Positions 3,367 to 22,757 of a stretch of DNA of 32,000 nt are shown here, one piece after another. The DNA is from Ktedonobacterales bacterium (GTDB taxonomy: Bacteria > Chloroflexota > Ktedonobacteria > Ktedonobacterales > JADMIN01): assembly GCA_030167145.1 (NCBI GenBank), contig CP126532.1, positions 600,001-632,000 of the forward strand. The letters run 5' to 3'. Position numbers and translations under genes: made by a program. Numbering within the stretch: position 1 is the first letter of the stretch; every line of letters starts with the position of its first letter. Under the pieces are notes generated by a model, which saw only the letters and a list, made by a program, of their open reading frames with translations, searched no databases and was not told the origin of the DNA.

Positions 3367-3497
3367 CCCGTCTGTATTCTCTTAGCGCATAGCGCCGTGC
3401 ATCGGAGCGCATTCGCCGCCCATTGTAGCAGATAGCGCCGCGCCTGCCCGCCCAACGGGACTTCCTGACGCTCGAAACTCGCCGCGCATTTTCATGC

Positions 3498-4442: not shown

Positions 4443-4637
4443 GGCGTCTCCCTCCCTCACACCAAGCATATCACCCCAACAGCGAGAGCGATGGCACGGA
4501 CGGCGTGGGGCCAGGCAACATTGTGTACAGCGACAGCGCAGTCTATCCGTAGTGACCTAATTGACGCGCATGCTACACTGATTTTCGACGCCTGGCCGAT
4601 GCGAGCGCAAGGCAGAGATGAGAGGAAGGAGCGCGCG

Positions 4638-4877: not shown

Positions 4878-4895
4878 GCAATCGAGAGCCGCGCC

Positions 4896-5180: not shown

Positions 5181-5207
5181 AGGCGCATTGTGCATTCACG
5201 GTTCAGT

Positions 5208-5226
5208 GCGCGGCAGAAAGCCGCGC
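5208..5226. terminator. GC-rich hairpin between convergent genes (candidate terminator, no U-tract)
   Basis: GCGCGGC-AGAAA-GCCGCGC forms a perfect 7-bp stem. It lies between the stop at 5180 (+) and the nfo stop at 5269 (-). Confidence 0.4.
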
Positions 5227-5268
5227 TGACGCAGCCGTTCGATGAGCTGGGTAGCGTAGTCCGCAAGG

Positions 5269-6150: not shown

Positions 6151-6198
6151 GAATTTGCTCTCTTTTCTCACTCCACAGCCAGGATGCCTGAGCACATA

Positions 6199-6843: not shown

Positions 6844-6853
6844 ACCGCAGACC

Positions 6854-8575
6854 TCACTCCTTCCAACTGCGCACAACATCCGGCGATTCGCCGCCGTGGA
6901 TCAGCACCTTCTGGCCCACCTTGACGAGCAATGGCGCCAGAATCGCGCGTCCGCTGACCAGCGCTTCGCCGGTGGAGAGCGAGGGCAGTTCCTTGATGTC
7001 CACTTCGGAGAAGTAGTCCGATGTGCTGCGAATGAACGCCTGATCGTCAGGGTTTTTAATGCGCATGGCGATGATCGTGTTTGCCTGGCTGGTCACGTCG
7101 CTATCCAGCTTGCTGGGCCGCTGACTCACGATAGCCGCGCCAACGCCGAACTTGCGACCCTCGGCGAAGATCTTCTTGATGATCGGTAGCGAGATGCTGG
7201 CTTCGCGCGCCGGGGCAAAGGTATGCCCTTCTTCGATGATCAGGAAGACAGGCCGGATGGGATCGCTGGTATCTTGCGCCGCACGCAAAATCTCGCCGCA
7301 GAGCAGCGCCACCACCACCTGCATCGAGGTACGCGACAGACCTTGCAGATCAATGATGCTGATGCGCCCGACGCTATCGGCGGGCGCGGTCTTGCGGGCG
7401 CGCCCGATCATCTGCCGCACGTCGAAGGGGTGCAGGCCACGCTCATAGAAAGCGTTGGCGTCGGTGAGGAGGTTGCGCAGCCGCAGGGCGACGATGGAGG
7501 CGCTGCGCGCGCTGATGGTCTTGCGCTCATTGTCGGGGAGTTCGTCCCAGGTGGTGAGCGCATCCAGATTCCGCCCACAGAGATCCAGGAGATCACGCGG
7601 CTCGCGCGGGGAAGGGAACTTCTTCTCCCAATAGCGCAGCGCGACCTGGAGGAAGCGCTGCTGCGGCTCGGTGCTTTCGGGGAAGACGCTGGCGAGTTCG
7701 TCGGCGCTCATCTCGTCTAGCCGCAGCGCCAGGGGGTGATGCTGGTCGTTATAGCGCAGCGAGAACTCACGCGTGCGCGGCGCATAGACGTGTATGCCAC
7801 CGCCGCGATCTTGTAGCTCGCGCAGCTTTGCGCCGAGCGCGCGCAACCCGTCCGCTTCCTGCTCTGGCAGCGCGGCATAAGTGGAATCGGGGGCGAAGTT
7901 GAGCATGCCGCCCCGGAAGGCGCGCCCATATTCGCCGTGGGGGTCCAGCACGACGATGCTGGCGTTGGATTCGGTGAGCATCCGCTCGATGATGCGCCCG
8001 ATGGTGTAGCTCTTGCCCGCGCCGGTCATGGCGAGGACGGCCAGGTGCTCGGTGACGATGCGGTTCACGTCTATGTAGACCGGCACGATATTGTCGCCGC
8101 GCTCATAGCCGACGAGGTTGCCCAACTGGATGTTGGTTTCCGGCGAGTATTCGTAGAACTCGCGCAGGAAGGCGAAGTCCACGCCGTAGACCTTCGCGCC
8201 TGGCTCCAGCGGGCGGCGTGGGATGCGCACCTCGCCGGTGTCGGGGTCGCGGTAGCCGACCAGTTCCATGCCTGCGTAATTGGTCTCGCCGGTGGAACGG
8301 CTGGTGAGCAGCGATACCTCAGCTACACCTTCGCCCATTTGCTGCGTAAACAGCATATTTTGTCGGCTCACGCCAGTGATGCGACCGAGCACCCATGTCT
8401 CGTGCGTGTCGCGCCGCTCGCGATGGCGCACGCGCACAAACTCGCCCCGGCGCGCGCTGAAGCTATCGCGTAGCGCCACATTGACGCGCAGCCCACCAGT
8501 ATCGCCAACCAACGTTCCCAGCCAGCGCTCTTCTTGCATCGTCTTACGTCCCATCTCTCTGTTCGGGTCTGCCAC
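6854..8575 (-). CDS. herA: HerA/FtsK-superfamily (DUF87-type) hexameric ATPase
   Basis: It has an N-terminal HAS-barrel-like region. Walker A is LAVLAMTGAGKSYT followed by VVLDPHGEY. Walker B is PVFLIIEEGHTFAP, followed by GVGAAIVSQRPSKLD and IIAMRIKNPDDQ, which is the classic HerA motif order. The start is uncertain: GTG 8575, ATG 8554 or ATG 8539. Confidence 0.88.
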   Translation of the reverse strand: MADPNREMGRKTMQEERWLGTLVGDTGGLRVNVALRDSFSARRGEFVRVRHRERRDTHETWVLGRITGVSRQNMLFTQQMGEGVAEVSLLTSRSTGETNYAGMELVGYRDPDTGEVRIPRRPLEPGAKVYGVDFAFLREFYEYSPETNIQLGNLVGYERGDNIVPVYIDVNRIVTEHLAVLAMTGAGKSYTIGRIIERMLTESNASIVVLDPHGEYGRAFRGGMLNFAPDSTYAALPEQEADGLRALGAKLRELQDRGGGIHVYAPRTREFSLRYNDQHHPLALRLDEMSADELASVFPESTEPQQRFLQVALRYWEKKFPSPREPRDLLDLCGRNLDALTTWDELPDNERKTISARSASIVALRLRNLLTDANAFYERGLHPFDVRQMIGRARKTAPADSVGRISIIDLQGLSRTSMQVVVALLCGEILRAAQDTSDPIRPVFLIIEEGHTFAPAREASISLPIIKKIFAEGRKFGVGAAIVSQRPSKLDSDVTSQANTIIAMRIKNPDDQAFIRSTSDYFSEVDIKELPSLSTGEALVSGRAILAPLLVKVGQKVLIHGGESPDVVRSWKE

Positions 8576-8580
8576 AGCGG

Positions 8581-9705
8581 TCAGGTTGCGGGCGCATCGA
8601 GTGGTTCTGACGCGCTTGCCGGTTGCATCTGCTCATGCACGAGATCGCGGAAGAGCGCCAGGATGGATTGCGGGAACGCCGCCAGCCGCCGCGCATACCA
8701 GAGCGGCAGCGGTTCGGCGCGGTCGCCCGTGGCCAGGGTGGCGCGCGCGATGTCATCGGCGAGGCGGTCCAGCATGTCACTTGTCCAGTGCTCACGGTGG
8801 CCCGCCACCTGGATCTGCCAGATGGGCGTGCGTTCGCCCGCGCGCATGAAGAAGCCGAGAATGCCGCTATGATGCAGCGCGTTTGGCTCCCAGTTCGTGG
8901 CCAGATTGATATCCTCGAAGCTATAGGCCACCGTGCGTGACCCTGGCGTCACCAGCATCTCCACCAGCCGCGACATCCCCGCCTGGCGCAGACGCCGCCA
9001 CTCGCGCTGAATGAAGAGCGCGAGGTTTGCTGGTATGGCATCGGGGCTAGTCTTCGGATTATTGTTGAGCGCGGTGAAAAGCGGCGTGGCGTTCTGATTC
9101 TGGACACTGGCGACGGTCACGCCGTCGGCGCGCAGGGGATAGAGCTGTGTGAAGTGGGCACGCCAGAAGCCGTTGATGGTGTGCAGCATCTCCAGCCACT
9201 CTTCTTCCACATCTTCGATCTGCGCGCGATTGCGGTCGTCGCCGCGCGAAACAAAGATCGGCACATCCAGCAGCGTGACCCGTGGCGGAGCGTCCGCCTC
9301 TAGCACCGTGGTGAGCAGCTCGAACGCATGTTGCGCGCGTTTCCAGCGCATGCGCTGCGTGGTCTCGTAATAGTCCAGGTCGCCGATATGCACCTGGACC
9401 TGCTCGCTCGCTCCGAGGATGTCATGCTGCGCGAGGCGCAGGTGGTGCGCGTGAGCAGTCGTGCCATACAGCAGGCCACCGAATGCGGGCAGGGTCTTTG
9501 CGGCCACTGCGACGCCAGCGATATCGAGTGTCCGCGCATCCTCTTCGTGCGAAGTGAACTGGCGGACGAGGCCGCGCGCCCGCAATTCCTGGCGTAAGCG
9601 TTCCGATTGGCGCAGTTTGCCAGTCAGCGTCTTCGCGGAACCCACCACACTGAGTTCTAGCTCAGCGGCGATCTCCGTCGCGAGGGTCGTGCGCTCTTCA
9701 TCCAT
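8581..9705 (-). CDS. HerA-adjacent hypothetical protein (positional equivalent of NurA; homology not established)
   Basis: ATG at 9705 is preceded by AGAGGAAAG, and the stop lies 5 nt before the herA GTG. The segment AFELLTTVLEADAPPRVTLLDVPIFVS loosely resembles the NurA E...hhhhDG.L block, but with V in place of G. The candidate first-motif position reads IAGVAVAA, with no DGS. Confidence 0.3.
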   Translation of the reverse strand: MDEERTTLATEIAAELELSVVGSAKTLTGKLRQSERLRQELRARGLVRQFTSHEEDARTLDIAGVAVAAKTLPAFGGLLYGTTAHAHHLRLAQHDILGASEQVQVHIGDLDYYETTQRMRWKRAQHAFELLTTVLEADAPPRVTLLDVPIFVSRGDDRNRAQIEDVEEEWLEMLHTINGFWRAHFTQLYPLRADGVTVASVQNQNATPLFTALNNNPKTSPDAIPANLALFIQREWRRLRQAGMSRLVEMLVTPGSRTVAYSFEDINLATNWEPNALHHSGILGFFMRAGERTPIWQIQVAGHREHWTSDMLDRLADDIARATLATGDRAEPLPLWYARRLAAFPQSILALFRDLVHEQMQPASASEPLDAPAT

Positions 9706-9726: not shown

Positions 9727-10698
9727 CTACGATACGCCCACATGCGGCCCGCTCAGCCGTCGAATCCGCGCTGCAAGCTGCCAGCGCGCGATATACTCCT
9801 GCGCTCGTGCTACGATCACCTGTGACACGCCGTCTATCCCCGCCAGATCACCCTGCACTACGCCATGCTCCCGCAGCCACGCCCAGCCAGCGGCGAGCGC
9901 CGTGTCATCGGCGGCCAGGCCCAGCGCGCCCGTCACATGTGCGAACGCCGTGAGCATCTCTTCTGGCGCAGCGGCCATTTTCGCATCGGAACTGCTTACT
10001 GTGCGCAGCGCGGGCGCCGCCAGCGCCAGCGCCAGCAGCGCGATGCGCGCGTGCTGCTCGCCTTCAGCCGCCAGCGCAACAGCATCTTGCGCGGAGTTCG
10101 CCGCGAGTGGCGCGCGATCCACTGGCACGGCGGTCAGCCAGTCCGTCAGCGCGCGCAGTAGCGCCGCCACACTCGCCGGATCGGTCTGCGCCGAGGCCGT
10201 GCCGAGCATCAGTGTCGTCGCCAGCAGATGGCCTTGCCGGTTGCTTGTGCGCGGCAGCGCCACGAACAGTGGCTCACCAGAGGCCGAGGCCACTAGTGGT
10301 TGCCCATGCGCGCCTGCCAGTTGCTCGCGATACAGGATGCGCAGCGGCTCCTGCGATGCCACCGCAGCGGCAAGCGGGGACATGAGCCGCACCGCATCGC
10401 GGTGTGGGGCCGGAACAACAGCGATAGCAGTGCCTGGCAACGCGATTATTCCCACCGGCCACGGCGGCACGAGACACAGGTGCGCGCCCGCTGCGATGGC
10501 AGCCGCGAGATCAAGCGAAGCGGCGCGGTCGGCGCCCAGCAGGTAGAGCGTGCCCTGAGCCGCCCGCAGCAGTTCGTCTGGCGTGGCCAGTTCGGCGGCG
10601 AAGCCCGCGCCGGCTAGCCGCTCGGCTAGCCGCCGGTCAGCAGGTCCACATTCGATGATGCGTAGTCGCTGCGCATCGCTTGCATCGCTCATCGCCAC
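9727..10698 (-). CDS. Ala-rich hypothetical protein of the cluster (N-terminal alpha/beta, flavodoxin/GATase1-like pattern is only a guess)
   Basis: GTG at 10698 lies 9 nt after GGGAG and 16 nt after the upstream stop; an alternative ATG is at 10692. It is the only long ORF here running in the same direction as the operon. I recognise no motif in it. Confidence 0.5.
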   Translation of the reverse strand: MAMSDASDAQRLRIIECGPADRRLAERLAGAGFAAELATPDELLRAAQGTLYLLGADRAASLDLAAAIAAGAHLCLVPPWPVGIIALPGTAIAVVPAPHRDAVRLMSPLAAAVASQEPLRILYREQLAGAHGQPLVASASGEPLFVALPRTSNRQGHLLATTLMLGTASAQTDPASVAALLRALTDWLTAVPVDRAPLAANSAQDAVALAAEGEQHARIALLALALAAPALRTVSSSDAKMAAAPEEMLTAFAHVTGALGLAADDTALAAGWAWLREHGVVQGDLAGIDGVSQVIVARAQEYIARWQLAARIRRLSGPHVGVS

Positions 10699-10714: not shown

Positions 10715-13700
10715 CTAGAACTCCACCACCGTCCGCAGCGTGATGAGCTTGCGCTCGCTCAATGCATCTAAGACCTGTCGGCCATATCGCGTGACGATCT
10801 GCTCATCGGTCATACCCTGCCGGTGATCGTAATATATCTGCATGTAGCGCTGGAATAATTCAGCATTACCGCACAGCGCCGCGCCTTTCCCCAGTATGTC
10901 CTCGGCGTAACGTTTCAGTTCATCGCGCCCCGCCGCATAGGTCCGCGCCGTCGTCACCTGCTGACTATTGGGCGCGTTTTGCGGATTATTCAGGCGAGCT
11001 GCAAGTTTCGCGACCGCTTGATCTTGCGGCTGATCGAGTTGCGCCAGAATTTCAGCCTGAGCATCGCGCCTGGCCGCTTCGATCACCTCATGCGATGAGG
11101 CGCAACGCTTGCGTATCTCGTCGCTCTCTTTTATCAGATCCTCAATGGTGGTATCGCGTGTGTCGTTGTTGGCAATGAAGCCCTTCACGACCTCCTCGAG
11201 ATCAGCCATATCGCGCGGCAACGTGGCACCGGTGAACTTGTTGCGCACCTCTTCCGCCGTGCCCGCAAAGTAGCGCTCCAGGTCTGCCCATGCCTCGCGC
11301 ACGCCATTGTACGCGGTTGCGGCCTCCGACCACCCACTATATGCCGTGTTGTACCGCACCCACCAGCCATCGGGGTTCGTATCCTCGAGTTGGCGGCGAT
11401 ACCAGGCCAGTTTGAGCAGCACACCAGAGAGGTTGTTCGCGCCTTTGAGCACTTTCAGCGGCGACTCGTTCGCCTGCTGGCTGAGGCCAACGGGCAGCGT
11501 GTTGCCGGGGAGCGCGCCGTCGAGGTCGGCTTCCATCGCCGCCAGCAGGCCAAGCATCGGTTGTGTGGGGAAACGCTCCGCACTGCCCTGGCTCGCGCCG
11601 TAGCGCTCCACGACCTCCGCGCGGCGCGTAGCGATGCGCTCGCGCAGGTCGTGTTCCGCCTCGCCAAGATACGCTTCGAGGTCGCGCAGGAAGCTGACGC
11701 GATATTCGATACTGAACTCAATATAGCTCTGGTCGCCCGCGATGCGGTTGATGTTGTCTTGTAGGGTCTGCGGGTCAATCGCGGGCGGCTGCACGTTCTG
11801 GCCAGGCTTGCCCAGCACCTGATCCAGCGCGGCGGCAATCTCGCCAATGGCACGGGCGACCTGCTCGAACGCATCCTGGTTGACTGGTGGGAACTGCGAC
11901 AACTCAGCAAGCGGCAACTGACGCAGACTATCTTTGCGCGGAGTTAACTCGTGGTTCTTCAGCAGAATCAATTGGTCGTGATTCACGCGCAACTGCCCCG
12001 CCAGCGCCTGCACGGGCGCGCTGAGTTCGCCCACCTGCTTCGCGTAGCCGCTCTTGACGGTGTCGAATGAGCCAAGCCGCTGGAAGGCGTCATCAAACTT
12101 CGCGTCGAAGGCGCTGGCCGTGCGCGCCACATACTCGCTGACCTGGTTCGTCTCGACGACGCCTAGCTCCACCATCAGCGCCATCACCTGCTCCAGCACG
12201 CCAGCGCTGCCTGCGGGGAAGGTCTCCGCGCCGCCGGGGCGCGCATAGAATAGCTCGCTATCCAAATCGAGCGGCTTCCGCGCCTTCACCCGCAGCAGAT
12301 CGAGGATGCGCGGCATCACCGGCGGAATCAGCGCGCGCCGCCGGTCGCCTTCGCCCGCAATCAGCGCCATCGTCCTGTCGCTCTGCACCTGTTCGTAGCC
12401 TTCGAGCGCCTTCCGCACCGAGCCAGCCTCCACGCCCAACGCGGCCATTCCCCCCACGACGACCAGCTTGCGATACGCCTGCGCAAATTCGCGATACGTC
12501 GGCGTGCTGGCAGACCGTGCGGGAAAGAACGGGCGCAGTACGTAGCCCTGGATTTCCGCCGCTCTCAGCCATGATTCGAACCTATCCAGCAAGATTTGCT
12601 TGAACTCGCCTTGCAGGTCACGCCCCTTCTGGCTCACCTCGTTTGACTTGAAGCTGCCCGGCTGATCGCGCAGCGCATAGCGGATATAGAACTCCCATTC
12701 GCGGGTCTGCGGCTCGACGAGATGCGAGATCACGGAAATGGCGAGATGTTCGCTGTGGGTGTCCTTCAGATGATTTTGCCAGATCTCGCGATCCTGGGCA
12801 CGCGTGAAGAGTAGCAACACCGGCACTCGCGCACGGATCGCCCGTAGGTCGTCGGTGACGGCCTGGGGTGTCTCCCGTGCCTTCAGCAGCACCAGTTGAT
12901 TGCGCGAGGTGACGTTGAGACGTTCATGCGATTCCAGTTTGAGTGTCAGGTATGGCGCCTTCACGTCGGCAAGTTGTGGATTCACGACCACCGTGGGATT
13001 CTCAAAGAGGGTGTTGGCAACGCCACGCAACAGCCGTTCGTCATTCTTGCCGGGGTCGCGGTCAATCGTGGTGATAACCTGCTCCCAAAGGTCTTCTTTC
13101 AGCCAGTTATTGGCAGCGGCTTTGCCCCACAGGTCGTTGAAGCGTCGCAGCAGCGCCATCGTCGGCGCGATCAGCCGTGCGGTCTGGGGTACCCGATGGC
13201 GTTCGAGCAGCAGCTTGTGCATCGTGCGCACCGTGGCGGCGGAGAGATTCGCGCCGAAGCCTGGGTAGGCGAAACTGACCTGCCCCTCGAAATCCGCCGG
13301 GTCGGCATAGATCCACAGCCGCGCCGCCGCGCCTGCTGGTTCGCCATCGCGCGTCCAGGCGAAGGTACGCAGGCTGGCGAGCACCGCGGCAGGATCGAAA
13401 TTGGGGCTGCCCTCGCCAGTAAGCTGCGGTTTCCGCTCGCTGTCATAGAGACCAGTGGCCATCAACCCTGTGGTAAGCTGGTCTGCGCTAACGTCCACTA
13501 ACACTGCCTCGCCGGCAAAGCGCGTTTGGAAGGGATCCTGATAGTTCAGCAGCGCGTTCCACAACTCCGGCGCGATGCCAAGATCGGTGAGCGTCGCCGG
13601 AATCTGGTTGTAGATCACCTCGCGCATCGCGTCTTTGAGCGTAAGTGGCTGGATATCGCGGTCCTCAAACGTGCTCGGTTGGAAGACTTTGCCCGTAAGC

Positions 13701-14773
13701 TTGCACACCTCGGCGAAGATCTGGCCGATCTCTAACCGGGGATTATCTATCAGCGCGAAATGGGCCTTGTTCATGATAAAGCTGAACCAGCCGAAATTGC
13801 GGTCGGCGGCAAAGAAGGCGCGCCAGGCCAGGTCGAGCAGCGTCCCTTCCAGGGGATACCCATTGCGCTGCAGCGCGGCGATCATCTGCTCCAGGTCATC
13901 GGCGCTGGCCTTGTCGAGATCTGCCTTGAGCATACGCCGTTCGAGAGCTTCCAGATGGGCTTCGTTACGCGACGCCTCAGAATTGAAAAAGACAAAATTG
14001 AGCCGGGGATAGGCATTGGTATTGGCAGCCTCTTTGACGCCTTCGTAGAGGTCTCGCACCGCGCGCTTTGAAATAGGGCGATTGCTGAGTTCGCGGTCTC
14101 GCTCGCCAGCAAACGGGTCCGTCTCACCACCAGCTTCGACCTCATCTACTATCACCAGCAGCCGGGTAATTTGCCCCTTCGTCATCTCAGTGAATGCCTG
14201 GCTGATTCGCGCTGCGCGTTCAGGATAGCTGTAGGAGCTATCGTTAGCGATGAAGGCGAGGTGGTCGAAGTCGAAATTTGGGTCTAATTCACAGAGCGCG
14301 CCGCGTAACCCTTCAAGCAGATCGCGGTAAGACTTACGACCGCGCTCGGCATCGGCGAGATTGACAGTGGCGGCGCAGACGATCTTGCCCATGATCGTAC
14401 TGATGTCCACACCGAAGTCATCCATGAAATAGAGCACTTCCACCAGGGAGACGAACAGTGGCATGATCACACTGCCGTCCTTGGGGGACTGCAATAGAGG
14501 CTCCGCCTGATCACCATTGCTGAGTATCCAGCCGCTGCTCTGACCGCACGCCTGCGCCACCAATTCATGCGCCAGCCGCGATTTGCCGATAGCCCAGTTG
14601 CCGGAGATAGCGAGGAAGTGCGCCTCATCTTCATAGCGTATGCTACCTGTGAAATCGCGCAGGCGATAATAACAACTGTCTTGACCGATATAGGGTAAGG
14701 TAGGTGGGTATTTGGCGACGGCCTTGAAGGGGCACTTGACGCCCGCAAGTTGAACGGTGGTAGCAGTGGTCAC
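10715..14773 (-). CDS. Giant P-loop NTPase (about 1350 aa) with a KAP/STAND-like Walker A and a long helical C-terminal region
   Basis: Walker A is ISGNWAIGKSRLAHEL (about 14579-14608). Walker B is RLLVIVDEVEAGGE (about 14138-14161). The preferred start is GTG at 14773, downstream of AGGAGGAA. The ORF-track TTG start at 14890 would translate the intergenic repeat elements. Confidence 0.75.
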   Translation of the reverse strand: MTTATTVQLAGVKCPFKAVAKYPPTLPYIGQDSCYYRLRDFTGSIRYEDEAHFLAISGNWAIGKSRLAHELVAQACGQSSGWILSNGDQAEPLLQSPKDGSVIMPLFVSLVEVLYFMDDFGVDISTIMGKIVCAATVNLADAERGRKSYRDLLEGLRGALCELDPNFDFDHLAFIANDSSYSYPERAARISQAFTEMTKGQITRLLVIVDEVEAGGETDPFAGERDRELSNRPISKRAVRDLYEGVKEAANTNAYPRLNFVFFNSEASRNEAHLEALERRMLKADLDKASADDLEQMIAALQRNGYPLEGTLLDLAWRAFFAADRNFGWFSFIMNKAHFALIDNPRLEIGQIFAEVCKLTGKVFQPSTFEDRDIQPLTLKDAMREVIYNQIPATLTDLGIAPELWNALLNYQDPFQTRFAGEAVLVDVSADQLTTGLMATGLYDSERKPQLTGEGSPNFDPAAVLASLRTFAWTRDGEPAGAAARLWIYADPADFEGQVSFAYPGFGANLSAATVRTMHKLLLERHRVPQTARLIAPTMALLRRFNDLWGKAAANNWLKEDLWEQVITTIDRDPGKNDERLLRGVANTLFENPTVVVNPQLADVKAPYLTLKLESHERLNVTSRNQLVLLKARETPQAVTDDLRAIRARVPVLLLFTRAQDREIWQNHLKDTHSEHLAISVISHLVEPQTREWEFYIRYALRDQPGSFKSNEVSQKGRDLQGEFKQILLDRFESWLRAAEIQGYVLRPFFPARSASTPTYREFAQAYRKLVVVGGMAALGVEAGSVRKALEGYEQVQSDRTMALIAGEGDRRRALIPPVMPRILDLLRVKARKPLDLDSELFYARPGGAETFPAGSAGVLEQVMALMVELGVVETNQVSEYVARTASAFDAKFDDAFQRLGSFDTVKSGYAKQVGELSAPVQALAGQLRVNHDQLILLKNHELTPRKDSLRQLPLAELSQFPPVNQDAFEQVARAIGEIAAALDQVLGKPGQNVQPPAIDPQTLQDNINRIAGDQSYIEFSIEYRVSFLRDLEAYLGEAEHDLRERIATRRAEVVERYGASQGSAERFPTQPMLGLLAAMEADLDGALPGNTLPVGLSQQANESPLKVLKGANNLSGVLLKLAWYRRQLEDTNPDGWWVRYNTAYSGWSEAATAYNGVREAWADLERYFAGTAEEVRNKFTGATLPRDMADLEEVVKGFIANNDTRDTTIEDLIKESDEIRKRCASSHEVIEAARRDAQAEILAQLDQPQDQAVAKLAARLNNPQNAPNSQQVTTARTYAAGRDELKRYAEDILGKGAALCGNAELFQRYMQIYYDHRQGMTDEQIVTRYGRQVLDALSERKLITLRTVVEF

Positions 14774-14827
14774 GGTGGGTGCTTCCTCCTGAAACTTCAG
14801 ATACGACCTTATCAGTGCCAGATGGAT

Positions 14828-14933
14828 GGGCAGGCATTCCTGTCCGCCATCCCCTAAGTGGGGCAGACATTCCTGTCTGCCTGCGGACAAAAAGTGTCCG
14901 CGCTATCAGCGTCCAGCGGACACCCCTACGTGG
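14828..14933 (-). promoter_or_regulatory. Repeat- and palindrome-rich intra-operon spacer upstream of the NTPase gene
   Basis: On the plus strand there are four elements. GGGCAGGCATTCCTGTCCGCC (14828-14848) and GGGCAGACATTCCTGTCTGCC (14861-14881) are direct repeats, and the second is a perfect 8-bp-arm palindrome (GGCAGACA-TTCC-TGTCTGCC). A hairpin GCGGACA-AAAAG-TGTCCGC lies at 14883-14901. CCCCTAAGTGGGG (14851-14863) is echoed by CCCCTACGTGG (14923-14933). Confidence 0.45.
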
Positions 14934-16140
14934 CGAAACGAAACTCGACGCGCTCCATAGTGAGATCGCCGAAGAGACAATCGGACGGCCCGGCCTGCGC
15001 ATGGAAGGTCAGTCCAATACCAAGCTTGCCCACATCCGGCCGCAGATAGTAGGCGACCTGCCGGTTGAAGTAATCCACGCGGTCCCCTGGCGGGATATCC
15101 AGTTCGTCGCAGACATAGTCGCGGATCGTCACGATATGCACCATCCCTTCAGGGTCGCTCAACTTCTCATACGTCGCGCGCAGCGAATTTAGGAAACGCA
15201 TCTCTGCTTCTCCCCCAAACAGGTCCGCCACCAGCGACGGATCAAACATCTCTTCGCAGCGTTCCCGGTCCAGCGTCCAGCCCTGCCGGTGCGGCAGATA
15301 CATCAGCGCGCCGATGTCGCGATACAACGTCAGCGCCTGCTTCATGTGTAATTTTAGGTCATTGCCCGATGGCTCTTTCTTCGCATTCAAGGCGTCTCTT
15401 CCGCCCTCAAAGCATACATTCTCTGGTACGCAAACATCCGCACGCTCGATGCGCTCGCGCAAGAACGGCCCGAGAATTACGTATGGCTCGCACTGGAGCA
15501 ACAGCGTAAAGCTATAAGCAGGCGTTCCGCCTTTGCTATAGCCGAAGAGGTCAGTTTCCTCGCCTTCCTTACCGCGCAGCGCGGTAGTCTTCCCCTTGGG
15601 AAAGAACGCCTCTTCTGAGGAACCGCCCTCGAAGGTCAGTAAGCAGTTCCACCGCGCCAGGTGCAGCAGCACGCAGCGCACGCGCACGTCGTTGCGCGCC
15701 AGGATGACCGCGAAGACGCGCTTCCAGTTGTTGCTAGAGCGATCAGTGGAATACGCATGCGCCAGCGCCAGCCCGTCGCCGGTGATACAATATGCGCCCG
15801 ATGAATCGCCCACCTCCTCGAAAAGGCCAACTCCCTCGATGGTTATTTCCTGGTACTCACGATTTATCCGAAGGCTCAGGATAGACGTCAACCAACTCTT
15901 TCCCATTGGTTCATTGCGGTGTCCGTCGCTCTCGCCAAAAATCTCTTCGACGATCTCTTTCTTCGTATACCTGTGCCCCGATTCCGCACGTTGCAAGTAG
16001 TACGGCCAGCGCGCGGCGCTCTGCTGCCACGAGAACACCTTGTTCAGCCGCACGATCAGCGGGTCCGGGCGCAGCACGTCATGTGCGGGCGTCACCGCGT
16101 CGTCGAGTTGCATCTGCGTATATTTGTCGGTGGTCGTCAT
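14926..16140 (-). CDS. Hypothetical protein (404 aa), compositionally atypical member of the cluster
   Basis: ATG at 16140 overlaps the upstream stop in an ATGA junction. No motif was recognised, apart from possible wHTH-like segments such as VFAVILARNDVRVRCVLLHLAR. G+C is lower than in the neighbours: my hand count of 15301-15420 gives 62/120, against 44/60 for 16501-16560. Confidence 0.6.
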   Translation of the reverse strand: MTTTDKYTQMQLDDAVTPAHDVLRPDPLIVRLNKVFSWQQSAARWPYYLQRAESGHRYTKKEIVEEIFGESDGHRNEPMGKSWLTSILSLRINREYQEITIEGVGLFEEVGDSSGAYCITGDGLALAHAYSTDRSSNNWKRVFAVILARNDVRVRCVLLHLARWNCLLTFEGGSSEEAFFPKGKTTALRGKEGEETDLFGYSKGGTPAYSFTLLLQCEPYVILGPFLRERIERADVCVPENVCFEGGRDALNAKKEPSGNDLKLHMKQALTLYRDIGALMYLPHRQGWTLDRERCEEMFDPSLVADLFGGEAEMRFLNSLRATYEKLSDPEGMVHIVTIRDYVCDELDIPPGDRVDYFNRQVAYYLRPDVGKLGIGLTFHAQAGPSDCLFGDLTMERVEFRFAT

Positions 16141-17780
16141 CGCGCGCTCCTCCCGGCGGGGATAATGCTCAGCAGATCATATGCGGCGTAATACCAGCGC
16201 GAGTCGCGCGTACCCAGTGACGCGGCGCCGCCATCGCCCTCGCACAGCAACCCGACACGCAGCCCCTGCTCCACCAGACGCTCCCCCAGACGGCGCGTCT
16301 CGTCCGCGTTCCCGGCGTAGCCTTCGTCCCACACCTCGTAGCCCAGCGCCAGCAGCCGATCATCCAGCGCCAGCGCCAGCGGACGCCCATCCAGCAGCCA
16401 GCCGTTCGCGCGCCGCGCCAGCAGTTCGGCCTGCGACCCAACATCGGTGGCGATCAGATAGAGCAGCGCCAGATGCGGATGCGCCGCCAGCAGCGCATCG
16501 GGCTGCCCCTGCTCTGCAGTCAGCGACGCCGCCAGCAGCGTCGCCACTCCCGGACTTGCCGCGCGAGCCTTCACCCGCAGCGCCTCATCCAGAAAGCGGT
16601 ACGCGCGGCCCAGCAGCGGCAGATCGCTCGCCAGCGGCAGCGGCGGCCCGATCACCAGCGACGACGCCGTCAGCGGCATCTCATCGGCAATCGCCGTGGT
16701 GGCGAACTCGCCAGCCGCCTCGGTGGCGGCGGCGGCCAGCCGCTCGGCCAGATCTTCGATCTCGATGGCGCCCCGCGCGTTGCCATCCACACCCATCGCC
16801 ACCCGCTCATGCGCCAGCGCCAGCGCCGCTTCGGCGCTCTCCGCGCGCGGCGACCGCCGCGCCGCCACCGCCATGCGCTCGAACGGCGCCAGGTCGCGCA
16901 CCGTCAGCGCCACCGCTGGAACCAGCGCCGCCACCGTCACGCCGCCACGCCGTTCCAGCCGGATGTCCATGCCGCCGCGCCGCAACTGCTCCACCGCCAG
17001 CGACAGCGCCGACGGCCCGCCCCGCGTCACCACCACACCCTGGCCCCGCTGCCGCGCCGCCATCAGCAGCAGCAGCGCATGCAGTGTCAGCGGCTCATCC
17101 AGCCACTCCGCATCCAGCCGCACTGGAAGCTGCGCGGCTTCCGCCAGATCCGTGGCGATTTCCGCGGCACGGGTCAGGTCGGTCCACCGTGCGCGGTGAC
17201 GCTGGCCAAACCAGTCGCGCAGCGCATCAGTGCTGAGCGGCTCCAGTGGCAGAAACTTCGTTTGCAGCACACGATTGAGCAAGTCGCGATCACCAAAGCC
17301 TCCATTCGGCGCGAGTATCTCACTCAGTGATACGGCACGCGCGCGAAAACCTGGAAAGATTTCGTAAATGCTGGCCTCGATCTGGTTCGTCACCGGCAAT
17401 CGCTTCACCCGCGCCGTAAGGAGCGTTTCCAGCAAACTGTGACACAAATAGCGCTGATACGCGGGCAGCGCCAGCAGCGCGCGCCACAGCCCTTCTGTCG
17501 CGACATCTCCCTCGGCCAGCAGCGCGCGTCCCGCCGCCGTTGGCCGCAGCCATCCCGTGGGCGATTCATCCAACAAGCCCGCCAGCCTTGCCGTGCCCAG
17601 ATAGTGTGGGCCGACGTCGCTGTGGTCCACATAGTTCATCGCCTGGTTCATCTCGGCGAGGGTGCTGTAGGGATTGCGCAACGCCTGCGCCAGGCAGCGC
17701 AGCGCCTTGCCAGGATCGCTACCCTTGCTCACCGTTCGCATATCCTGCTCCACCTCACCAGCGTACATCCGGTCGCCCAT
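16137..17780 (-). CDS. Hypothetical protein (547 aa), paralog of the C-terminal module of the upstream giant protein
   Basis: Several colinear blocks are shared with residues of about 1140-1612 of the 1612-aa protein. They are YLGTARLAGLLDE/YLRLGTVGGLLAT, LALPAYQRYL/LSLPAYRTHL, LLLLMAARQRGQG/LLLLLAAQSQGQG, HLALLYLIATDVGSQAELLARRANGW/HLALLTLIAYDSGALAEQVRRADDGW, ALGYEVWDEGY/ALGYETWDEAY and WYYAAYDLL/VYYAAYDTL. Confidence 0.7.
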   Translation of the reverse strand: MGDRMYAGEVEQDMRTVSKGSDPGKALRCLAQALRNPYSTLAEMNQAMNYVDHSDVGPHYLGTARLAGLLDESPTGWLRPTAAGRALLAEGDVATEGLWRALLALPAYQRYLCHSLLETLLTARVKRLPVTNQIEASIYEIFPGFRARAVSLSEILAPNGGFGDRDLLNRVLQTKFLPLEPLSTDALRDWFGQRHRARWTDLTRAAEIATDLAEAAQLPVRLDAEWLDEPLTLHALLLLMAARQRGQGVVVTRGGPSALSLAVEQLRRGGMDIRLERRGGVTVAALVPAVALTVRDLAPFERMAVAARRSPRAESAEAALALAHERVAMGVDGNARGAIEIEDLAERLAAAATEAAGEFATTAIADEMPLTASSLVIGPPLPLASDLPLLGRAYRFLDEALRVKARAASPGVATLLAASLTAEQGQPDALLAAHPHLALLYLIATDVGSQAELLARRANGWLLDGRPLALALDDRLLALGYEVWDEGYAGNADETRRLGERLVEQGLRVGLLCEGDGGAASLGTRDSRWYYAAYDLLSIIPAGRSAR

Positions 17781-17918: not shown

Positions 17919-20900
17919 TCAACCGCTCGCGCCGCTCGGAGGCAGATCATCGAACACCGCACGCAGCCGTAGCAATGTATCGTATGCCGCATAATACACC
18001 TGGTTAGCGAGCGTGCCAGCCGCTTCCAGCGTCTCATCCACCGCGCGCGCCAGGCCCAGCCGCAGCGCCAGCAGGACCAATTCATCACCAAGTGTGGCCA
18101 CCAGCGCCGGATCGTCGCGGTACGCCTCGTCCCACGTCTCATAGCCCAGCGCGCGCAGCGCTGCATCTAGCGCGCTGATCAGCGGCAGCCCTCCCAGCCG
18201 CCAGCCATCGTCCGCACGGCGCACCTGCTCGGCCAGTGCGCCGGAGTCATATGCGATCAGCGTCAGCAGCGCCAGATGCGCGTTCGCGGCCAGTGTACGC
18301 GGCGCATCCCACGGCTGCGCCAGTAATTCCGCGCTCAGGCACACCGCCAGCGGCGCGACTGCCTCACCGCGCGCTAGCCGGTCAGCATGGGCGAGAAAGG
18401 CGAACGGCACGGCGCTGGCGCTCTGCTCAACCCAGCCAACATCAGCGATCAGCGCCGGAAATGCGCACGGCAGCATCTGCCCATCGGCGAAGCGCGCCGC
18501 GTCGCTGGTCTGTGGTGGCGGTGGCACGAGCAGTGCCGTCAGCGCCGTCGCGCTCGTACCCAGCAGTTCGGCGTAGAGGTCCGAGGCCGTAATCGCGCGC
18601 TGCGGCCACGCGAACTGCTGCGCCTGCAACCACGCCACGCCCAGTGCGGTGGCAAAATCGCCATCCAGCGCCCCCAGGCTCTCCGTCATCGCCGAACAAT
18701 CGTGTACGGCGATGTCTACTCGCTCATCCAGCGCGACACACCCAACGCTGTCACTGGCGATGGCGACACCGAGCAGACGCAACTGCGTGATGGTGCGCTC
18801 GATGTCGGGCAAGCCTTGCGCCGTCGCTTCAGCACACGCGAAACCCTGGCCTTGGCTCTGCGCCGCCAGCAGCAGCAACAGCGCCGCCAGCGCCGGTCCG
18901 CTCAAATCCGCCGTCGCAATCAGCGCCGAAGAACCATCCAGCGCTACTCGGCGTTGCACCCGCTGACCTAGACCAAACCGCGCGTCCCACGCCCTGGCCA
19001 GCGCGGGATCCAGCAGCGCGGCAGCATCGCCAGTGGCGCTGCCCTGCTCAGCCCGCAGATGTGTGCGATAGGCGGGCAGGCTCAGCGCCAGCGTCCGCGC
19101 CGCGTCCTGTGGATCGCGCGCGGCAGCGGCGAGCCAGGCGCGCCCGCGCGGCGTCGGGCGCATGCGCGCAGCGGGCGCATCGCAAGTGAGCGGCGCGGTA
19201 GCGAGCAGTCCGCCAACTGTACCCAGCCGCAGATACTCGTTGCCTTGTGGTCGCCCAGGCACATACCCCAGCGCTTGTGTCGCCTCGGCCACCTCAGCCC
19301 AGGGGCGCGCCAGCGTATGCAAAATCAGGCCGCGCAGCTTTTCAGGCTGCCGAGTGCCCCGCAATACCAGATGCCCGGCTGATACTCCCGCTCCCACCAC
19401 CTCAGCCGCCCGCGACACCGGCGCATGCGCCAGCCGGTAGCACAGCCCTCCAGGTGCACCCTCATCGGGAATCATCTCGACGAAGAGCATATCCCCAGGC
19501 TGCGCGCCAACCCTGGTGAACCACGCCCCCAACCCTGAAATCTGCGACGCCCCGCGCTTCAGTGCCATTGGCGTCTCCTTGCCATCAACGGAGACCCCCA
19601 CTGCCGCGAAGTGTCCCAGACGAGGAAACAGCTCGCGCGTCGGTTTGTTCGAGAACCCTATGCCGGTGGTCAACATCGGCTCGGTGAGCCGCATTTGCAC
19701 CACACGATGCCCATGTTCATTGGTGAACGCCCCGACTACACGTGCTGCCCGCCCATGTGGCTCAACACCAAACTTTTCGGTATAAGCGACCGCTGAATCG
19801 AAGTTGCTGTAGTCGCGGTCCACAAGGCCAAAGTAGCCGTTACCAAACGGCTTGATTCGCGAGTCGGTAGCCAGCGCGGCAGACAAACTGTTCTCTTTCC
19901 AGCGATAGCGTTCGCTTGCGCGTGCGATCACCTCATCGCGATGCAGCGGGCGTTCTGCCGCGGCCAATACATGCTCCACCACACTGGCGACATTGCAGAG
20001 CGCGGGATTGTAGTCATCCTCCGCCAGCGCGAACATCCCATGCCCAACCAGCACGAATGTCTCTGGAAAGCGGCCCATAAATGCGTGGACGGTATGGTCG
20101 TTGCGCTCGCTATCTTCGGGAAAGAGTGCGCGATAGCGTGCGGCAATCTCGCTGAAGTGCGCTGGGTGGCCCAGGTCACGCAACGCAGCGATCAGGCGCG
20201 GCAACAGCTTACTACCACTGCTGGAAACATAAGTCGCTCCCTGGCGCTGAATTCGTGTGGAGAGGGTGAGCACGGCAGTGACGAACGCGCGACCCGCCCG
20301 CGCCACCTCTTCGCCCCCGCTCTCCAGTGACTCGGCGATCAAGCGTTCTGGCTCGATGCCGCCAGGGCGCGCTTCCAGCAGCCGCAGCGCCGTAGACTCC
20401 ACCTGTTCGACCAACTCTGGCGTCTGCGACGCGGCGACATAGACATCGGCGTCCGTAGTGGCCAGCGCAGGCGACCACGAGGCCAGCAGCGCCACCGTCG
20501 TCACGGGATATACTCCGCCAAACGGCAGCCATACTGCGATGCGCTCAGCCATGCGCGTGGCGGTTGCTATACCGCCCTCAGCACGCACAGCCCACAGCGC
20601 CAGCGCGCACAGCCCACGGACATACGACTCGATGGTGGGGGCGGCTAATCGTTCGTTGGCCCGCACTTCAAGCTGCCGTGCGCGCTCACGGGTCACGTAG
20701 AACTCTGCGCCCAACTCGTTCAATGTCTTCGGGTGGCCATCGAAGACGCCGCAGCGCGCGAACAGCACGCGAAACTCGCGTGGCAACGGATCCGCTGGCA
20801 ACGCATCCGCTGGCTCCGCTATCCTCTTGCCGCGTGGCATCCCGCCCACCAGCCCATACAGCAGCGCCTCCACACTTACCGCATCCAGCACCGACAGCCG

Positions 20901-22757
20901 TGCCTCATCCTCCGGCCCGCCCGCCAGCGCGCGCTCCGCAAGTTCTTGCGCGAACCGCCAGCACAGTTCACCAACCAACCAGTCCTCTTCTTCGTGACTC
21001 AGCGCAACGTTCGAGTTCATGATGTGCGAGCCGCCCGTGTCGCAAAGTTCGCCGAGCGTAAGATGTGCCAACGGCGCGAGCGCGGAAACCGAATCGCCTG
21101 CGTCCACCACTTCGGCAATCCGCAGCTCCCGCCACGCAACGCCATAGCGATCCAGCAGCCCCAGCAACGGCGACCTCAAGAGCATGAGCAGGGGATGCGT
21201 CTCCTTCGCCATCCGCCCCTGCGTCGCGAGATTGGCAGTAGGCCGCTGCTCGACATCTCCCACGGTATCCCCTGCATAGTCCCCCTGTTCTGCTGGCGGT
21301 GTGAGCAAATCGTCAGGTAGTCCGTCTATCCACGGTAGCAGAAACGTCAGCAGCCGTTCACATAGCTCGCGAAAGCTGCCAGGGCCGAAGTTACGCAACC
21401 CGCAAAGGTCATCTGGGTTGAGCCGCGCCACATCGCCCACGGTCCGCATGCCCGCGCCATACAGCACGTTGTACGTGCGCATCGCTTGTGACGATGACGA
21501 GGGCAGCAGCGCCGCCTCCAATGGCACAGTATCCAGCGCACAGTTCAGCTCCCTCAGCGCCGCGACGAAACGCGGCGAGAGCAGCGGACGGTGATAAACC
21601 CAGGGCGCGGCCAGCACATCATCCAGCGCGTAGAAAAGCGCGCTGCCAATCGCCTGCGGGTGGCCATCGGCGCCCAACCCAACGTGGGCCACGCCGGACA
21701 GGACAGGTGACTGGTACCCCACGAGCAGCGGCGCAAGCGTTTCCGCCAGCGCGGGCCGTAGCATCGCCCGCGCCATCGTGACAACCTCGGCCCAGAAAGC
21801 GCCCGGTGTAGGGCGCGCATCGCTGGTGTTGTGCTCAGCCGTCGCGGCCAGCGCCAGCAATTCCAGCGGCGTCGCCGCCTCCAGGCTTCCCATCGCGCGC
21901 GAGTCGAGCAGGCGTATTGTGCGCCGCCAATCAGACGCAAGCTCATCCAGCAGACCGATACAGGCGTCTGGCAGTAGTGAAATCGAGACCCCATCGCCAC
22001 CTGGCGCAAGCGTAGTAGCCTGGCCTATTAGCGGCATCGCCGCTCCCTTTGCTGTGTGGTCCGGTTGCCTCATCATGCTGAACGCACGTCGCCTCCGTCG
22101 TTGGTCATCCTCTGCCATCGGCCTCCCTCGCGCGACTGGGCTAGCTGGCGATGTCTTCTGCAGCACGGCTTGCGCATCACGCCGCGCCAGCGCCTCTGCT
22201 GTGAACTGTTCTCTTTCGACTTCGCCCTCAAACCGCAACAATCTCACGCGCATCTCCTGCGAAAAGTAGGTTTCGATCAATGTTCGCCGCAGCGTTTGTC
22301 GCGCATCCTCCTGCCCCAGCAACGCGAACAGCGCATCATCCAGCCTTGCGCCGGTTATCAGATGATGCAGTTGACCGAGGGCCGTGACGGTCTGCGTGGT
22401 GGCAAGTTCCCGCCGCATACCTGGCGCGGGCAGCAGGTGCCAGAAACCATCATCGGCGAGGTGGAAAAAGGGGATCACCAGATTAGACGACCGCGCGCTC
22501 AATCGCGTCACGGCAGTCCAGTACGCATTGAATCGCGCCTGCAACTCGGAGTTCACCGCGATGAAGTTGCGCACGAGCAGCCCCTCAGCCACCAGCGAAG
22601 CGACACACAGTAGCAGCAGCGGCTTATGCGGCGCGTGTTGGCGCTGGCGCGTCCAGTGCTCTGGCGTGGGATACGGCAGCACATGTGAGAACGCCCACGT
22701 GTAGCGCTCGATCATACCGCCTCTTGCTGTATACACCATATCGCTGCGAGCCATCAT
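17919..22757 (-). CDS. Giant (about 1600 aa) multi-DNA-binding-domain protein with no recognisable catalytic domain
   Basis: Domain-like segments, by residue and approximate coordinates:
- Residues ~45-110 (about 22248-22700): HKPLLLLCVASL...NLVIPFFHLADDGFWHLL, resembling the ScoMcrA-type SBD / HNH_2-associated wHTH.
- Residues ~420-475 (21333-21500): MRTYNVLYGAGMRTVGDVARLNPDDLCGLRNFGPGSFRELCERL, resembling the RNAP alpha-CTD HhH.
- Residues ~655-708 (20634-20795): FRVLFARCGVFDGHPKTLNELGAEFYVTRERARQLEVRANERL, resembling sigma-70 region 4.
- Residues ~850-915 and ~924-985 (19803-20210): two HARE-HTH-like modules.
- Residues ~1005-1112 (19422-19745): GLGAWFTRVGAQPGDMLFVEM, possibly a B3/AbrB-like barrel (tentative).
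- The C-terminal ~470 aa are paralogous to the next gene.
The start is either ATG 22757 or ATG 22715. Confidence 0.75.
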   Translation of the reverse strand: MMARSDMVYTARGGMIERYTWAFSHVLPYPTPEHWTRQRQHAPHKPLLLLCVASLVAEGLLVRNFIAVNSELQARFNAYWTAVTRLSARSSNLVIPFFHLADDGFWHLLPAPGMRRELATTQTVTALGQLHHLITGARLDDALFALLGQEDARQTLRRTLIETYFSQEMRVRLLRFEGEVEREQFTAEALARRDAQAVLQKTSPASPVARGRPMAEDDQRRRRRAFSMMRQPDHTAKGAAMPLIGQATTLAPGGDGVSISLLPDACIGLLDELASDWRRTIRLLDSRAMGSLEAATPLELLALAATAEHNTSDARPTPGAFWAEVVTMARAMLRPALAETLAPLLVGYQSPVLSGVAHVGLGADGHPQAIGSALFYALDDVLAAPWVYHRPLLSPRFVAALRELNCALDTVPLEAALLPSSSSQAMRTYNVLYGAGMRTVGDVARLNPDDLCGLRNFGPGSFRELCERLLTFLLPWIDGLPDDLLTPPAEQGDYAGDTVGDVEQRPTANLATQGRMAKETHPLLMLLRSPLLGLLDRYGVAWRELRIAEVVDAGDSVSALAPLAHLTLGELCDTGGSHIMNSNVALSHEEEDWLVGELCWRFAQELAERALAGGPEDEARLSVLDAVSVEALLYGLVGGMPRGKRIAEPADALPADPLPREFRVLFARCGVFDGHPKTLNELGAEFYVTRERARQLEVRANERLAAPTIESYVRGLCALALWAVRAEGGIATATRMAERIAVWLPFGGVYPVTTVALLASWSPALATTDADVYVAASQTPELVEQVESTALRLLEARPGGIEPERLIAESLESGGEEVARAGRAFVTAVLTLSTRIQRQGATYVSSSGSKLLPRLIAALRDLGHPAHFSEIAARYRALFPEDSERNDHTVHAFMGRFPETFVLVGHGMFALAEDDYNPALCNVASVVEHVLAAAERPLHRDEVIARASERYRWKENSLSAALATDSRIKPFGNGYFGLVDRDYSNFDSAVAYTEKFGVEPHGRAARVVGAFTNEHGHRVVQMRLTEPMLTTGIGFSNKPTRELFPRLGHFAAVGVSVDGKETPMALKRGASQISGLGAWFTRVGAQPGDMLFVEMIPDEGAPGGLCYRLAHAPVSRAAEVVGAGVSAGHLVLRGTRQPEKLRGLILHTLARPWAEVAEATQALGYVPGRPQGNEYLRLGTVGGLLATAPLTCDAPAARMRPTPRGRAWLAAAARDPQDAARTLALSLPAYRTHLRAEQGSATGDAAALLDPALARAWDARFGLGQRVQRRVALDGSSALIATADLSGPALAALLLLLAAQSQGQGFACAEATAQGLPDIERTITQLRLLGVAIASDSVGCVALDERVDIAVHDCSAMTESLGALDGDFATALGVAWLQAQQFAWPQRAITASDLYAELLGTSATALTALLVPPPPQTSDAARFADGQMLPCAFPALIADVGWVEQSASAVPFAFLAHADRLARGEAVAPLAVCLSAELLAQPWDAPRTLAANAHLALLTLIAYDSGALAEQVRRADDGWRLGGLPLISALDAALRALGYETWDEAYRDDPALVATLGDELVLLALRLGLARAVDETLEAAGTLANQVYYAAYDTLLRLRAVFDDLPPSGASG

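Follow-up and report, generated by a model that had tools for sequence, protein, structure and literature searches.

A single open reading frame (ORF) of 1612 codons encodes a giant protein within a 32,000-nucleotide stretch of DNA from a Ktedonobacterales bacterium (contig CP126532.1, positions 600,001 to 632,000 of the forward strand; the whole stretch is termed the window). The protein is a chain of about ten DNA-binding modules: a winged helix-turn-helix (wHTH) of sulfur-binding-domain (SBD) type, a helix-hairpin-helix (HhH) of the kind that forms the C-terminal domain of the RNA polymerase (RNAP) alpha subunit (alpha-CTD), region 4 of sigma-70 (sigma4), two HARE-HTH modules, a B3-like barrel, and a FokI-like series of winged helices. 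We infer, with a little more confidence than doubt, that the giant serves an undescribed multi-gene system against invaders as its noncatalytic subunit for DNA recognition and targeting, and that the effector of this system is a NurA-HerA nuclease-translocase. A preliminary description of this DNA, made from the sequence letters, had proposed a sensor or targeting subunit; that proposal gains support from an operon order that is kept between loci, from reader proteins that diverge fastest, and from a C-terminal module shared with the second gene product of the operon (g547) and with a methylase fusion, the target bound by the giant being a prediction.

Modules of the giant protein

The ORF, the promoter-like site in front of it and the modules that it encodes are as follows.

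17919-22757, minus strand: giant reader protein ORF, 1612 codons; likely start M15 at 22715, giving 1598 aa
22811-22839, minus strand: promoter-like site TTGACG-17-TAGACT with extended TG, upstream of the giant gene (a sigma-70 consensus match only)
22233-22658, minus strand: SBD-type winged helix, aa 34-175 (NCBIfam, PDB 8H0L)
21336-21488, minus strand: RNAP alpha-CTD-type HhH, aa 424-474 (Pfam, family profile)
20613-20798, minus strand: sigma-70 region 4 HTH, aa 654-715 (Pfam, NCBIfam, PDB, family alignment)
20223-20612, minus strand: conserved post-sigma4 domain, aa 716-845, common to all alphaCTD-sigma4-HARE proteins
20013-20213, minus strand: HARE-HTH module 1, aa ~849-915 (family-level homology)
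19803-19997, minus strand: HARE-HTH module 2, aa ~921-985 (weaker support than module 1)
19422-19739, minus strand: B3-like DNA-binding pseudobarrel, aa ~1007-1112 (AlphaFold model, Foldseek)
17922-19367, minus strand: C-terminal multi-wHTH module, aa 1131-1612 (AlphaFold, Foldseek, paralogy with g547)

The GC content of the ORF by codon position is 0.72/0.51/0.72, with neighboring genes alike, and the ORF is kept full-length in 8 other clusters at an identity of about 40%. The true start is likely the ATG at 22715, since AAGAGG lies five bases upstream of it, the giant is 1598 aa long in the public NCBI annotation, and two close homologues, P0002 and P0004, begin at the position aligned with M15. 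The preliminary description had listed five types of module within this one polypeptide, namely an N-terminal ScoMcrA/SBD-like wHTH, an alpha-CTD-like HhH, sigma-70 region 4.2, two HARE-HTH-like modules and, tentatively, a B3-like barrel, and had seen no enzyme domain. All of these calls were borne out by the evidence below; the inventory had missed the multi-wHTH C-terminus and its paralogy with g547.

Two modules are derived from the promoter-contacting parts of RNAP. The alpha-CTD segment scored 27.0 bits against a Pfam cut-off of 23.8 and was matched in 9 of 9 family members (best E 1.7e-23), and the family profile matched alpha subunits in the PDB with E 7e-10. Giant residues R427, N430, G458 and S461 are the equivalents of alpha-CTD R265, N268, G296 and S299, which, along with K298, are DNA determinants of that domain; the K298 equivalent is not kept. 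Two alpha-CTD copies are present in some members of the giant family. The giant shares with the alpha subunit the C-terminal HhH domain without a match to the N-terminal dimerisation/assembly domain: neither RNA_pol_A_bac nor RNA_pol_L matched the giant in Pfam, and the NCBIfam rpoA models align at ~245-310 only.

The sigma4 segment scored 26.5 bits against a cut-off of 24.1 for Pfam Sigma70_r4, and matched T. maritima sigma-A region 4 (PDB 1TTY) with E 6e-11, or 8e-18 for the family profile. Its recognition helix reads TRERARQLE, within which TRERxRQ (R690, E691, R692, R694, Q695) is invariant in 9 of 9 giants; among 55 relatives of the block described below, conservation of the recognition-helix residues is 90% or higher. 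The five named residues are equivalents of E. coli sigma-70 R584, E585, R586, R588 and Q589, which touch the -35 hexamer. No Pfam match was obtained in the giant for Sigma70_r2 or Sigma70_r3 (core RNAP and -10 binding), and all NCBIfam sigma models matched it through their last ~55 positions only. With regions 2 and 3 not detected, the giant is not a sigma factor.

The N-terminal segment matched the N-terminal half of the NCBIfam model PT-DNA_restrict (model positions 12-148, E 5e-10), and aa 37-164 matched the SBDHga structure (PDB 8H0L) with E 5e-12. The sulfur pocket of SBDHga is hydrophobic, built round a central proline, and formed by H25, K26, L75, P76 and H79 (PMC10602919). All five pocket positions are kept in the giant, as H44, K45, I95, P96 and H99, and the SBDHga backbone contact N72 aligns with N92. 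Among giant orthologues the SBD is limited to the window protein, P0002, P0004 and L002.

The HARE-HTH assignment was made at the level of the family. When compared with Pfam HARE-HTH (PF05066), the window's own sequence gave 13.8 bits (E 0.079) for module 2 only, and ortholog segments of module 1 covered the full profile with up to 25.3 bits vs a cut-off of 25.9. The Pfam model was found in 46 of 55 homologues of the block (best E 1e-21), and the giant block is homologous to those 55 proteins with E 1e-30 to 1e-48; the assignment was accepted because of this transitive homology to Pfam-positive relatives.

The B3-like barrel and the C-terminal module were recognized from an AlphaFold2 model of aa 995-1612, built on 22 sequences (mean pLDDT 87.4, pTM 0.75). 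The sole beta-rich part of the model is aa 1007-1112, for which the best PDB matches by Foldseek were the B3 domains of ARF, VAL1, LEC2 and At1g16640, together with EcoRII-N and UbaLAI (probability ~1.0, E from 5e-3; TM on target up to 0.63); family profile searches gave no sequence-level match for the barrel. The last ~480 residues were modelled as a series of winged helices, and no enzyme fold was seen in aa 995-1612. The FokI recognition domain was the best multi-domain structural match (429 aligned columns), and other Foldseek matches were to wHTHs of MarR, ScpB and RPC62 type. The same module exists as a free-standing paralogue, g547, with 44% identity over the last 144 residues (E 2e-19) and 35% over the first ~100 (E 1e-7). 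The best-conserved stretch of the giant family, the invariant NAHLALL at aa 1492-1498, lies within the end shared with g547.

No Walker, HNH, GIY, HKD, PD-ExK or methylase motif was found in the giant by regular-expression search, and no catalytic family was matched in Pfam, NCBIfam, PADLOC or PHROGs. Residues 176-423 are poorly conserved, and are absent or replaced in several orthologues.

The operon and the relatives of its first gene

The giant is always the first gene in the conserved operon, which continues as listed.

16137-17780, minus strand: g547, free-standing paralogue of the giant C-terminal module (sequence comparison)
14926-16140, minus strand: g404, conserved protein, no family match
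14889-14924, minus strand: terminator-like hairpin GTGTCCGC…GCGGACAC then T5, just past the g404 stop
10715-14776, minus strand: g1391, ~1353-aa P-loop nucleoside triphosphatase (NTPase) with Walker motifs; the longer 1391-codon ORF is 10715-14890
9727-10698, minus strand: g323, Ala-rich, fast-evolving protein, no family match
8581-9705, minus strand: g374, nuclease of NurA fold (RNase H-like), found by AlphaFold and Foldseek, without a Pfam match
6854-8575, minus strand: HerA ATPase/translocase, HAS barrel plus DUF87 (Pfam, PADLOC, NCBIfam)
6199-6879, minus strand: g226, small conserved protein travelling with NurA-HerA; start probably at 6843

The order giant, g547, g404, ~1350-aa P-loop protein, g323, g374, HerA, with or without g226, is the same in at least six loci (L002, a Ktedonobacterales metagenome-assembled genome; L006, a metagenome contig; L009/L010; the P0164 locus; L014; and L017). 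The position of the giant at the head of an operon with an NTPase and HerA, as given in the preliminary description, was thus confirmed; the NurA-like nuclease had been missed. Between the window and L002 the identities were 87% for HerA, 65% for g374, 63% for g404, 59% for g1391, 51% for g226, 46% for g547, 41% for the giant and 40% for g323, and from the values for the giant and g547, set against those for HerA and the NurA-like protein, we conclude that the reader proteins evolve fastest.

The g374 model (pLDDT 86, pTM 0.84) matched NurA best in Foldseek (2YGK, E 2e-10; the T. kodakarensis HerA-NurA structures 9X1L/M/N; 3TAI; 1ZUP), with EndoV and the PIWI domains of Argonaute ranking after NurA; there was neither a Pfam NurA match nor a PDB sequence match. 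The protein belongs among about 40 unnamed clusters of 5.8 billion. Residues that may include the catalytic acids of NurA are kept within the 38 members of its family: D109, D111, D222, D265, D313, E169 and H303 are invariant in the alignment, and D61 (at the start of the first strand) and E101 are at least 90% conserved. The g374 gene ends 5 nt before herA. HerA itself matched Pfam DUF87 with E 6e-38 and PADLOC HerA with E 3e-57, and the NCBIfam models of DNA-repair HerA (E 3e-55 and 2e-43) outscored those of anti-phage-associated HerA (E 3e-32 and 2e-26). A HerA hexamer translocates duplex DNA into a NurA dimer, where both strands are cut (PMC12977600). The gene after HerA is the ~220-aa g226 in the window and in L002, L017, the P0164 locus and the distant locus L011; L009 lacks g226.

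In L011 (87-7053) a distant NurA-like/HerA/g226 cassette, with identities of 37%, 68% and 47%, was observed beside different partners (a 319-aa protein, a DUF5655 protein and an SMC/AAA_13-type ATPase). Since L011 keeps only this trio with other neighbors, the trio seems to be a portable effector cassette.

The g1391 protein carries Walker A GNWAIGKS at 97-104 and Walker B LLVIVDE at 244-250 (numbering of the 1391-codon ORF), and its start is the GTG at 14776, after AGGAGG. The g404 protein has 58-63% identity in orthologues from intact assemblies and 38-51% on the frameshifted L017. No match was found for g547, g404, g323, g374 or g226 in Pfam, NCBIfam, PADLOC or PHROGs, and sequence and profile searches of the PDB gave nothing for g547, g1391, g404, g374 or g226. 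One further protein bears on g547: P0040 (1682 aa) is a methylase (Eco57I/N6_Mtase/MmeI/TaqI_C) fused to full-length g547, and its locus L017 (6962-12010) holds the entire operon in an assembly that seems frameshifted in several genes. On account of this fusion, at least one variant of the operon contains a PglX-type modification enzyme, and the fusion points to restriction-modification or BREX logic.

An exhaustive HMMER search with aa 715-1612 over 1.84 billion representatives gave 403 proteins at E<1e-3. There were 8 full-length giant relatives (1231-1582 aa, ~40% identity) among these representatives, and a far larger group of proteins of 400-1265 aa which has only the sigma4-to-second-HARE block in common. 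A domain scan of 55 of the 403 matches found Sigma70_r4 in 53 and RNA_pol_A_CTD in 50, along with the 46 cases of HARE-HTH. In public records the block proteins bear generic names, either 'alpha C-terminal domain-containing protein' or 'hypothetical protein'. Word-index searches, whether made with the full giant or the family alignment, retrieved a single 74% relative apart from the giant itself; scans of genomes and of metagenomes each returned one true locus, with the remaining matches being to sigma4 only. When plasmids and phages were searched by tblastn with the alphaCTD-to-HARE block, only sigma-region-4 matches were obtained, bar one operon on an Abditibacteriota plasmid.

The short alphaCTD-sigma4-HARE protein was the first gene of an operon in 4 of 4 sampled loci (L013, L015, L016 and the P0033 locus), with 632-1265 aa and up to three alpha-CTD copies. 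It was followed by TGT, proteins of ~275, ~167, ~1310-1350 and ~360-370 aa, HerA/DUF87 (~390-400 aa) and, in some, GNAT. The giant block has 27% identity over 340 aa (E 1e-28) with the first gene of these TGT…HerA…GNAT operons. On the Abditibacteriota plasmid (AP024153.1, locus L012) a 568-aa sigma4-HARE protein, annotated 'RpoD', heads an operon; next in order come a methylase of Eco57I/MmeI type, a DUF4007 protein, an AAA protein (161 aa) and a P-loop protein (1371 aa). The set resembles a BREX-related operon carried by a plasmid. The preliminary description had suggested that the architecture be sought in other genomes along with its partners, and both the family and conserved operon loci were found; it had named the domains correctly and had missed their recurrence as the front end of BREX-related and HerA operons.

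Some further observations were made within and around the operon. In the g404-g1391 spacer (14777-14925, minus strand) the hairpin is followed by two copies of a ~20-nt palindrome, GGCRGACAGGAATGYCTGCC, and the RNA fold of the spacer has z = -3.3; the hairpin may split the operon or attenuate transcription, and the spacer may be an internal terminator or attenuator, or a protein-binding site. A xylose-isomerase-like TIM-barrel gene (AP_endonuc_2, E 6e-48; 5269-6195, minus strand) lies directly after g226. It was rejected as an operon member and is probably unrelated, because it does not accompany the operon at other loci; the FemAB/GNAT gene at 2269-3366, which lies outside the conserved block and is likewise not conserved elsewhere, was also rejected. 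A 174-aa ORF at 219-743 (plus strand) has a near-threshold DUF3427 match (26.1 bits vs a cut-off of 27.7), lies in the low-GC edge of the window (GC 0.52) and is possibly left over from another element. In L002, a 1507-aa SMC protein (3483-8006, minus strand) with an intein in its N-terminal ATPase head (Pfam Intein_splicing, E 7e-23) is encoded upstream of the orthologous operon. In L009/L010 (13155-15200) a CHAT protease-WD40 protein comes after HerA in place of g226, and is followed by a DDE transposase and a pentapeptide-repeat protein.

Proposed function and alternative explanations

If the giant is a targeting subunit, a sequence of steps can be proposed. Its C-terminal ~150 residues, shared with g547 and the methylase-g547 fusion, would attach the reader to the core machine or make it a partner of g547. 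The alpha-CTD and sigma4 modules, which keep the residues by which RNAP contacts the UP-element and the -35 hexamer, would place the complex on promoter-like DNA without a polymerase, and the HARE-HTH and B3 modules (and the SBD in some orthologues) would add discrimination of sequence or of modification, phosphorothioate DNA being a possible further target by way of the SBD. Once a target is bound, the ~1350-aa NTPase would permit the HerA hexamer to load, and HerA would then pass the DNA into NurA, to be degraded processively. A broader conjecture is that the alphaCTD-sigma4-HARE block is in general a polymerase-free promoter-recognition surface at the front end of BREX-related and HerA machines, used for loading at promoter-like sites or presenting RNAP-module decoys. 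We regard this as possible and rather doubtful; were it true, the pattern sensed in immunity would be the signals for transcription initiation, or attacks on these.

Several points weigh against the proposed anti-invader function. Proteins g404, g1391, g323 and g226 have no recognized family, with no detectable homology to BrxB, BrxC, DUF6079 or PglZ; no modification enzyme that might spare self is found within the window operon; and the window flanks are housekeeping genes (a histidine kinase, ABC transporters), not a defence island. Three linkers within the giant (aa 176-423, 475-653, 716-848) were covered by profile searches only. Finally, the classical role of HerA-NurA is in repair: in archaea and Deinococcus the complex resects double-strand breaks (PMC12977600, PMC9960219).

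One alternative, which we consider unlikely, is that the giant regulates transcription of its own operon or of other genes, either as a promoter-occupying repressor or as a sigma/alpha mimic that competes with RNAP at -35 and UP sites; MzaA, or the regulators found at the head of other defence operons, would be comparable. This would fit the DNA-contact residues kept in sigma4 and alpha-CTD, the first position of the gene next to a promoter-like site, and the existence of the sigma-70-family protein MzaA, a named defence component that matches the giant weakly; the MzaA matches are, however, limited to the 48 residues of region 4, and sigma regions 2 and 3 are absent. A regulator seldom needs ~10 DNA-binding modules and 1,600 residues; in addition, the C-terminal module of the giant is paralogous to a second structural gene and methylase-fused in a variant, and the giant evolves fast, in the manner of a specificity subunit.

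It is improbable, too, that the operon serves DNA repair or the maintenance of the chromosome or of a mobile element, the giant then recruiting HerA-NurA resection to chromosomal sites such as promoters or transcription-replication conflicts. In its favor are the resection of double-strand breaks by HerA-NurA in archaea and Deinococcus and the housekeeping flanks, both noted above, and the best score of the window HerA being against the repair-type model. The distribution is sparse and patchy (~40 NurA-like clusters in 5.8 billion, 8 full-length giants in 1.84 billion), however, and against a maintenance role stand also the rapid divergence of the reader proteins, the variant with a PglX-type methylase fusion, the integrases and transposases that border some of the operon loci, the homology of the reader block with that of TGT/GNAT/HerA immune-type operons, and the recombination of the NurA-HerA-g226 cassette with other partner sets.

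Phage proteins do target the RNAP modules in question, with T4 AsiA acting on region 4 and Alt/ModA on alpha-CTD, and the modules might be integrated decoys whose binding or modification by phage takeover proteins triggers NurA-HerA; three RNAP-peripheral modules do occur together, both in this protein and in several hundred clusters related to it (403 at E<1e-3), with surfaces conserved near the RNAP originals and a block tied to immune-type operons, but the decoy reading is unlikely, since the best-conserved residues are the DNA-contacting ones, for which DNA binding is the simpler explanation, the SBD, B3 and FokI-like wHTHs are plain DNA readers without an RNAP counterpart, and no phage partner is known.

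Should the giant indeed be a targeting subunit, the operon would represent a new type of defence, with the classical repair pair NurA-HerA as effector and, steering it, an exceptionally large subunit that only reads DNA. It would also show that immune systems have taken over copies of the promoter-contact domains of RNAP, and the parts of the modular reader (phosphorothioate pocket, -35/UP readers, HARE, B3, FokI-like wHTHs) would be separable for the study of DNA specificity.

Comparison with known systems

Individual parts of the giant resemble domains of characterized proteins. Its N-terminal domain is homologous to that of the phosphorothioate-dependent type IV enzymes ScoMcrA, SprMcrA and SBDHga, with the five pocket residues kept; those enzymes carry a fused HNH, whereas the giant polypeptide is without HNH or other nuclease domain, and the SBD is present in some orthologues of the giant family only. 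The barrel is predicted to have the same pseudobarrel fold as the effector domains EcoRII-N, BfiI-C and UbaLAI and the plant B3 factors, a likeness of fold without a sequence-level match. The C-terminal module and g547 are winged-helix arrays, like the FokI recognition domain, DndG, SspB/DUF4007 and BrxA; the module of the giant is about twice the length of DUF4007 or BrxA. No Pfam match to DUF4007 was found in the operon proteins, and an hhalign comparison of the C-terminal/g547 module with DUF4007-like proteins was weak (E 0.003, probability 10%, first wHTH only).

With the HerA-NurA pairs of archaea and bacteria the window operon shares adjacent nurA-like and herA genes, the NurA fold, and the HAS barrel plus DUF87. 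It differs in that the two genes belong to an operon of eight that also encodes DNA readers, sequence comparison does not identify the nuclease as NurA, and no Mre11 or Rad50 is nearby.

Both the Mza system and the window operon carry a sigma region 4 HTH within a defence-type operon; the match of the giant to the sigma-70-family protein MzaA (PADLOC E 1e-4, NCBIfam E 3e-6) covers only the 48-residue region 4, its score is 26.5 bits vs a family cut-off of 800, and no other Mza component was found in the operon. The window HerA matches mad8 of MADS and DndH of DndFGH through the ATPase part of these proteins only, with no other component of either system detected. Membership in MADS, Mza or DndFGH was rejected, as only HerA or region 4 is shared with these.

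The closest parallels are HerA/FtsK capture and BREX-related capture (BRC), which are computational predictions with fast-evolving multi-wHTH proteins (PMC10853773, PMC12839542). BRC has seven components, PglZ, DUF6079, STAND, DUF4007, HerA/FtsK, GNAT and TGT (PMC12839542); no alphaCTD, sigma4 or HARE protein is listed in that description, and text searches of it gave no HhH, RpoA or NurA (PMC12839542). The layouts of the TGT…HerA…GNAT operons and of L012 correspond to BRC and to the HerA/FtsK capture theme. The block heads BRC-like operons yet is missing from the published parts list, which, if the proposed function is right, bears on how BREX-type systems find and discriminate DNA.

The window operon likewise pairs a HerA-class translocase with a large P-loop ATPase, fast-evolving multi-wHTH proteins and a nuclease, its layout of gene sizes is parallel (~1350-aa ATPase, ~370-aa protein, HerA), and the alphaCTD-sigma4-HARE block of the giant is homologous to the first gene of the TGT…HerA…GNAT operons. 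On the other side, no operon protein matched PglZ in Pfam, NCBIfam or PADLOC, the nuclease found having instead the NurA fold, and TGT, GNAT, a small STAND NTPase and DUF6079 were not detected in the window operon. The HerA of BRC-like operons has ~390-400 aa, whereas that of the window is of the long repair type (573 aa), and the window reader continues into a B3 barrel and a module like g547. When g1391 was compared by hhalign with the large ATPases of L012, L013 and L016 the result was not significant, despite the Walker motifs and similar length, nor was the comparison of g374 with the 372-aa protein of BRC-like operons significant; beyond the reader block and HerA, no homology was shown between proteins of the window operon and those of BRC-like operons. 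Because their defining components were sought and not found, the operon is not BRC, BREX, MADS, Mza or DndFGH, and it is best filed as a system of the HerA-capture/BREX-related kind, with an effector of NurA fold and an unusually elaborate reader.

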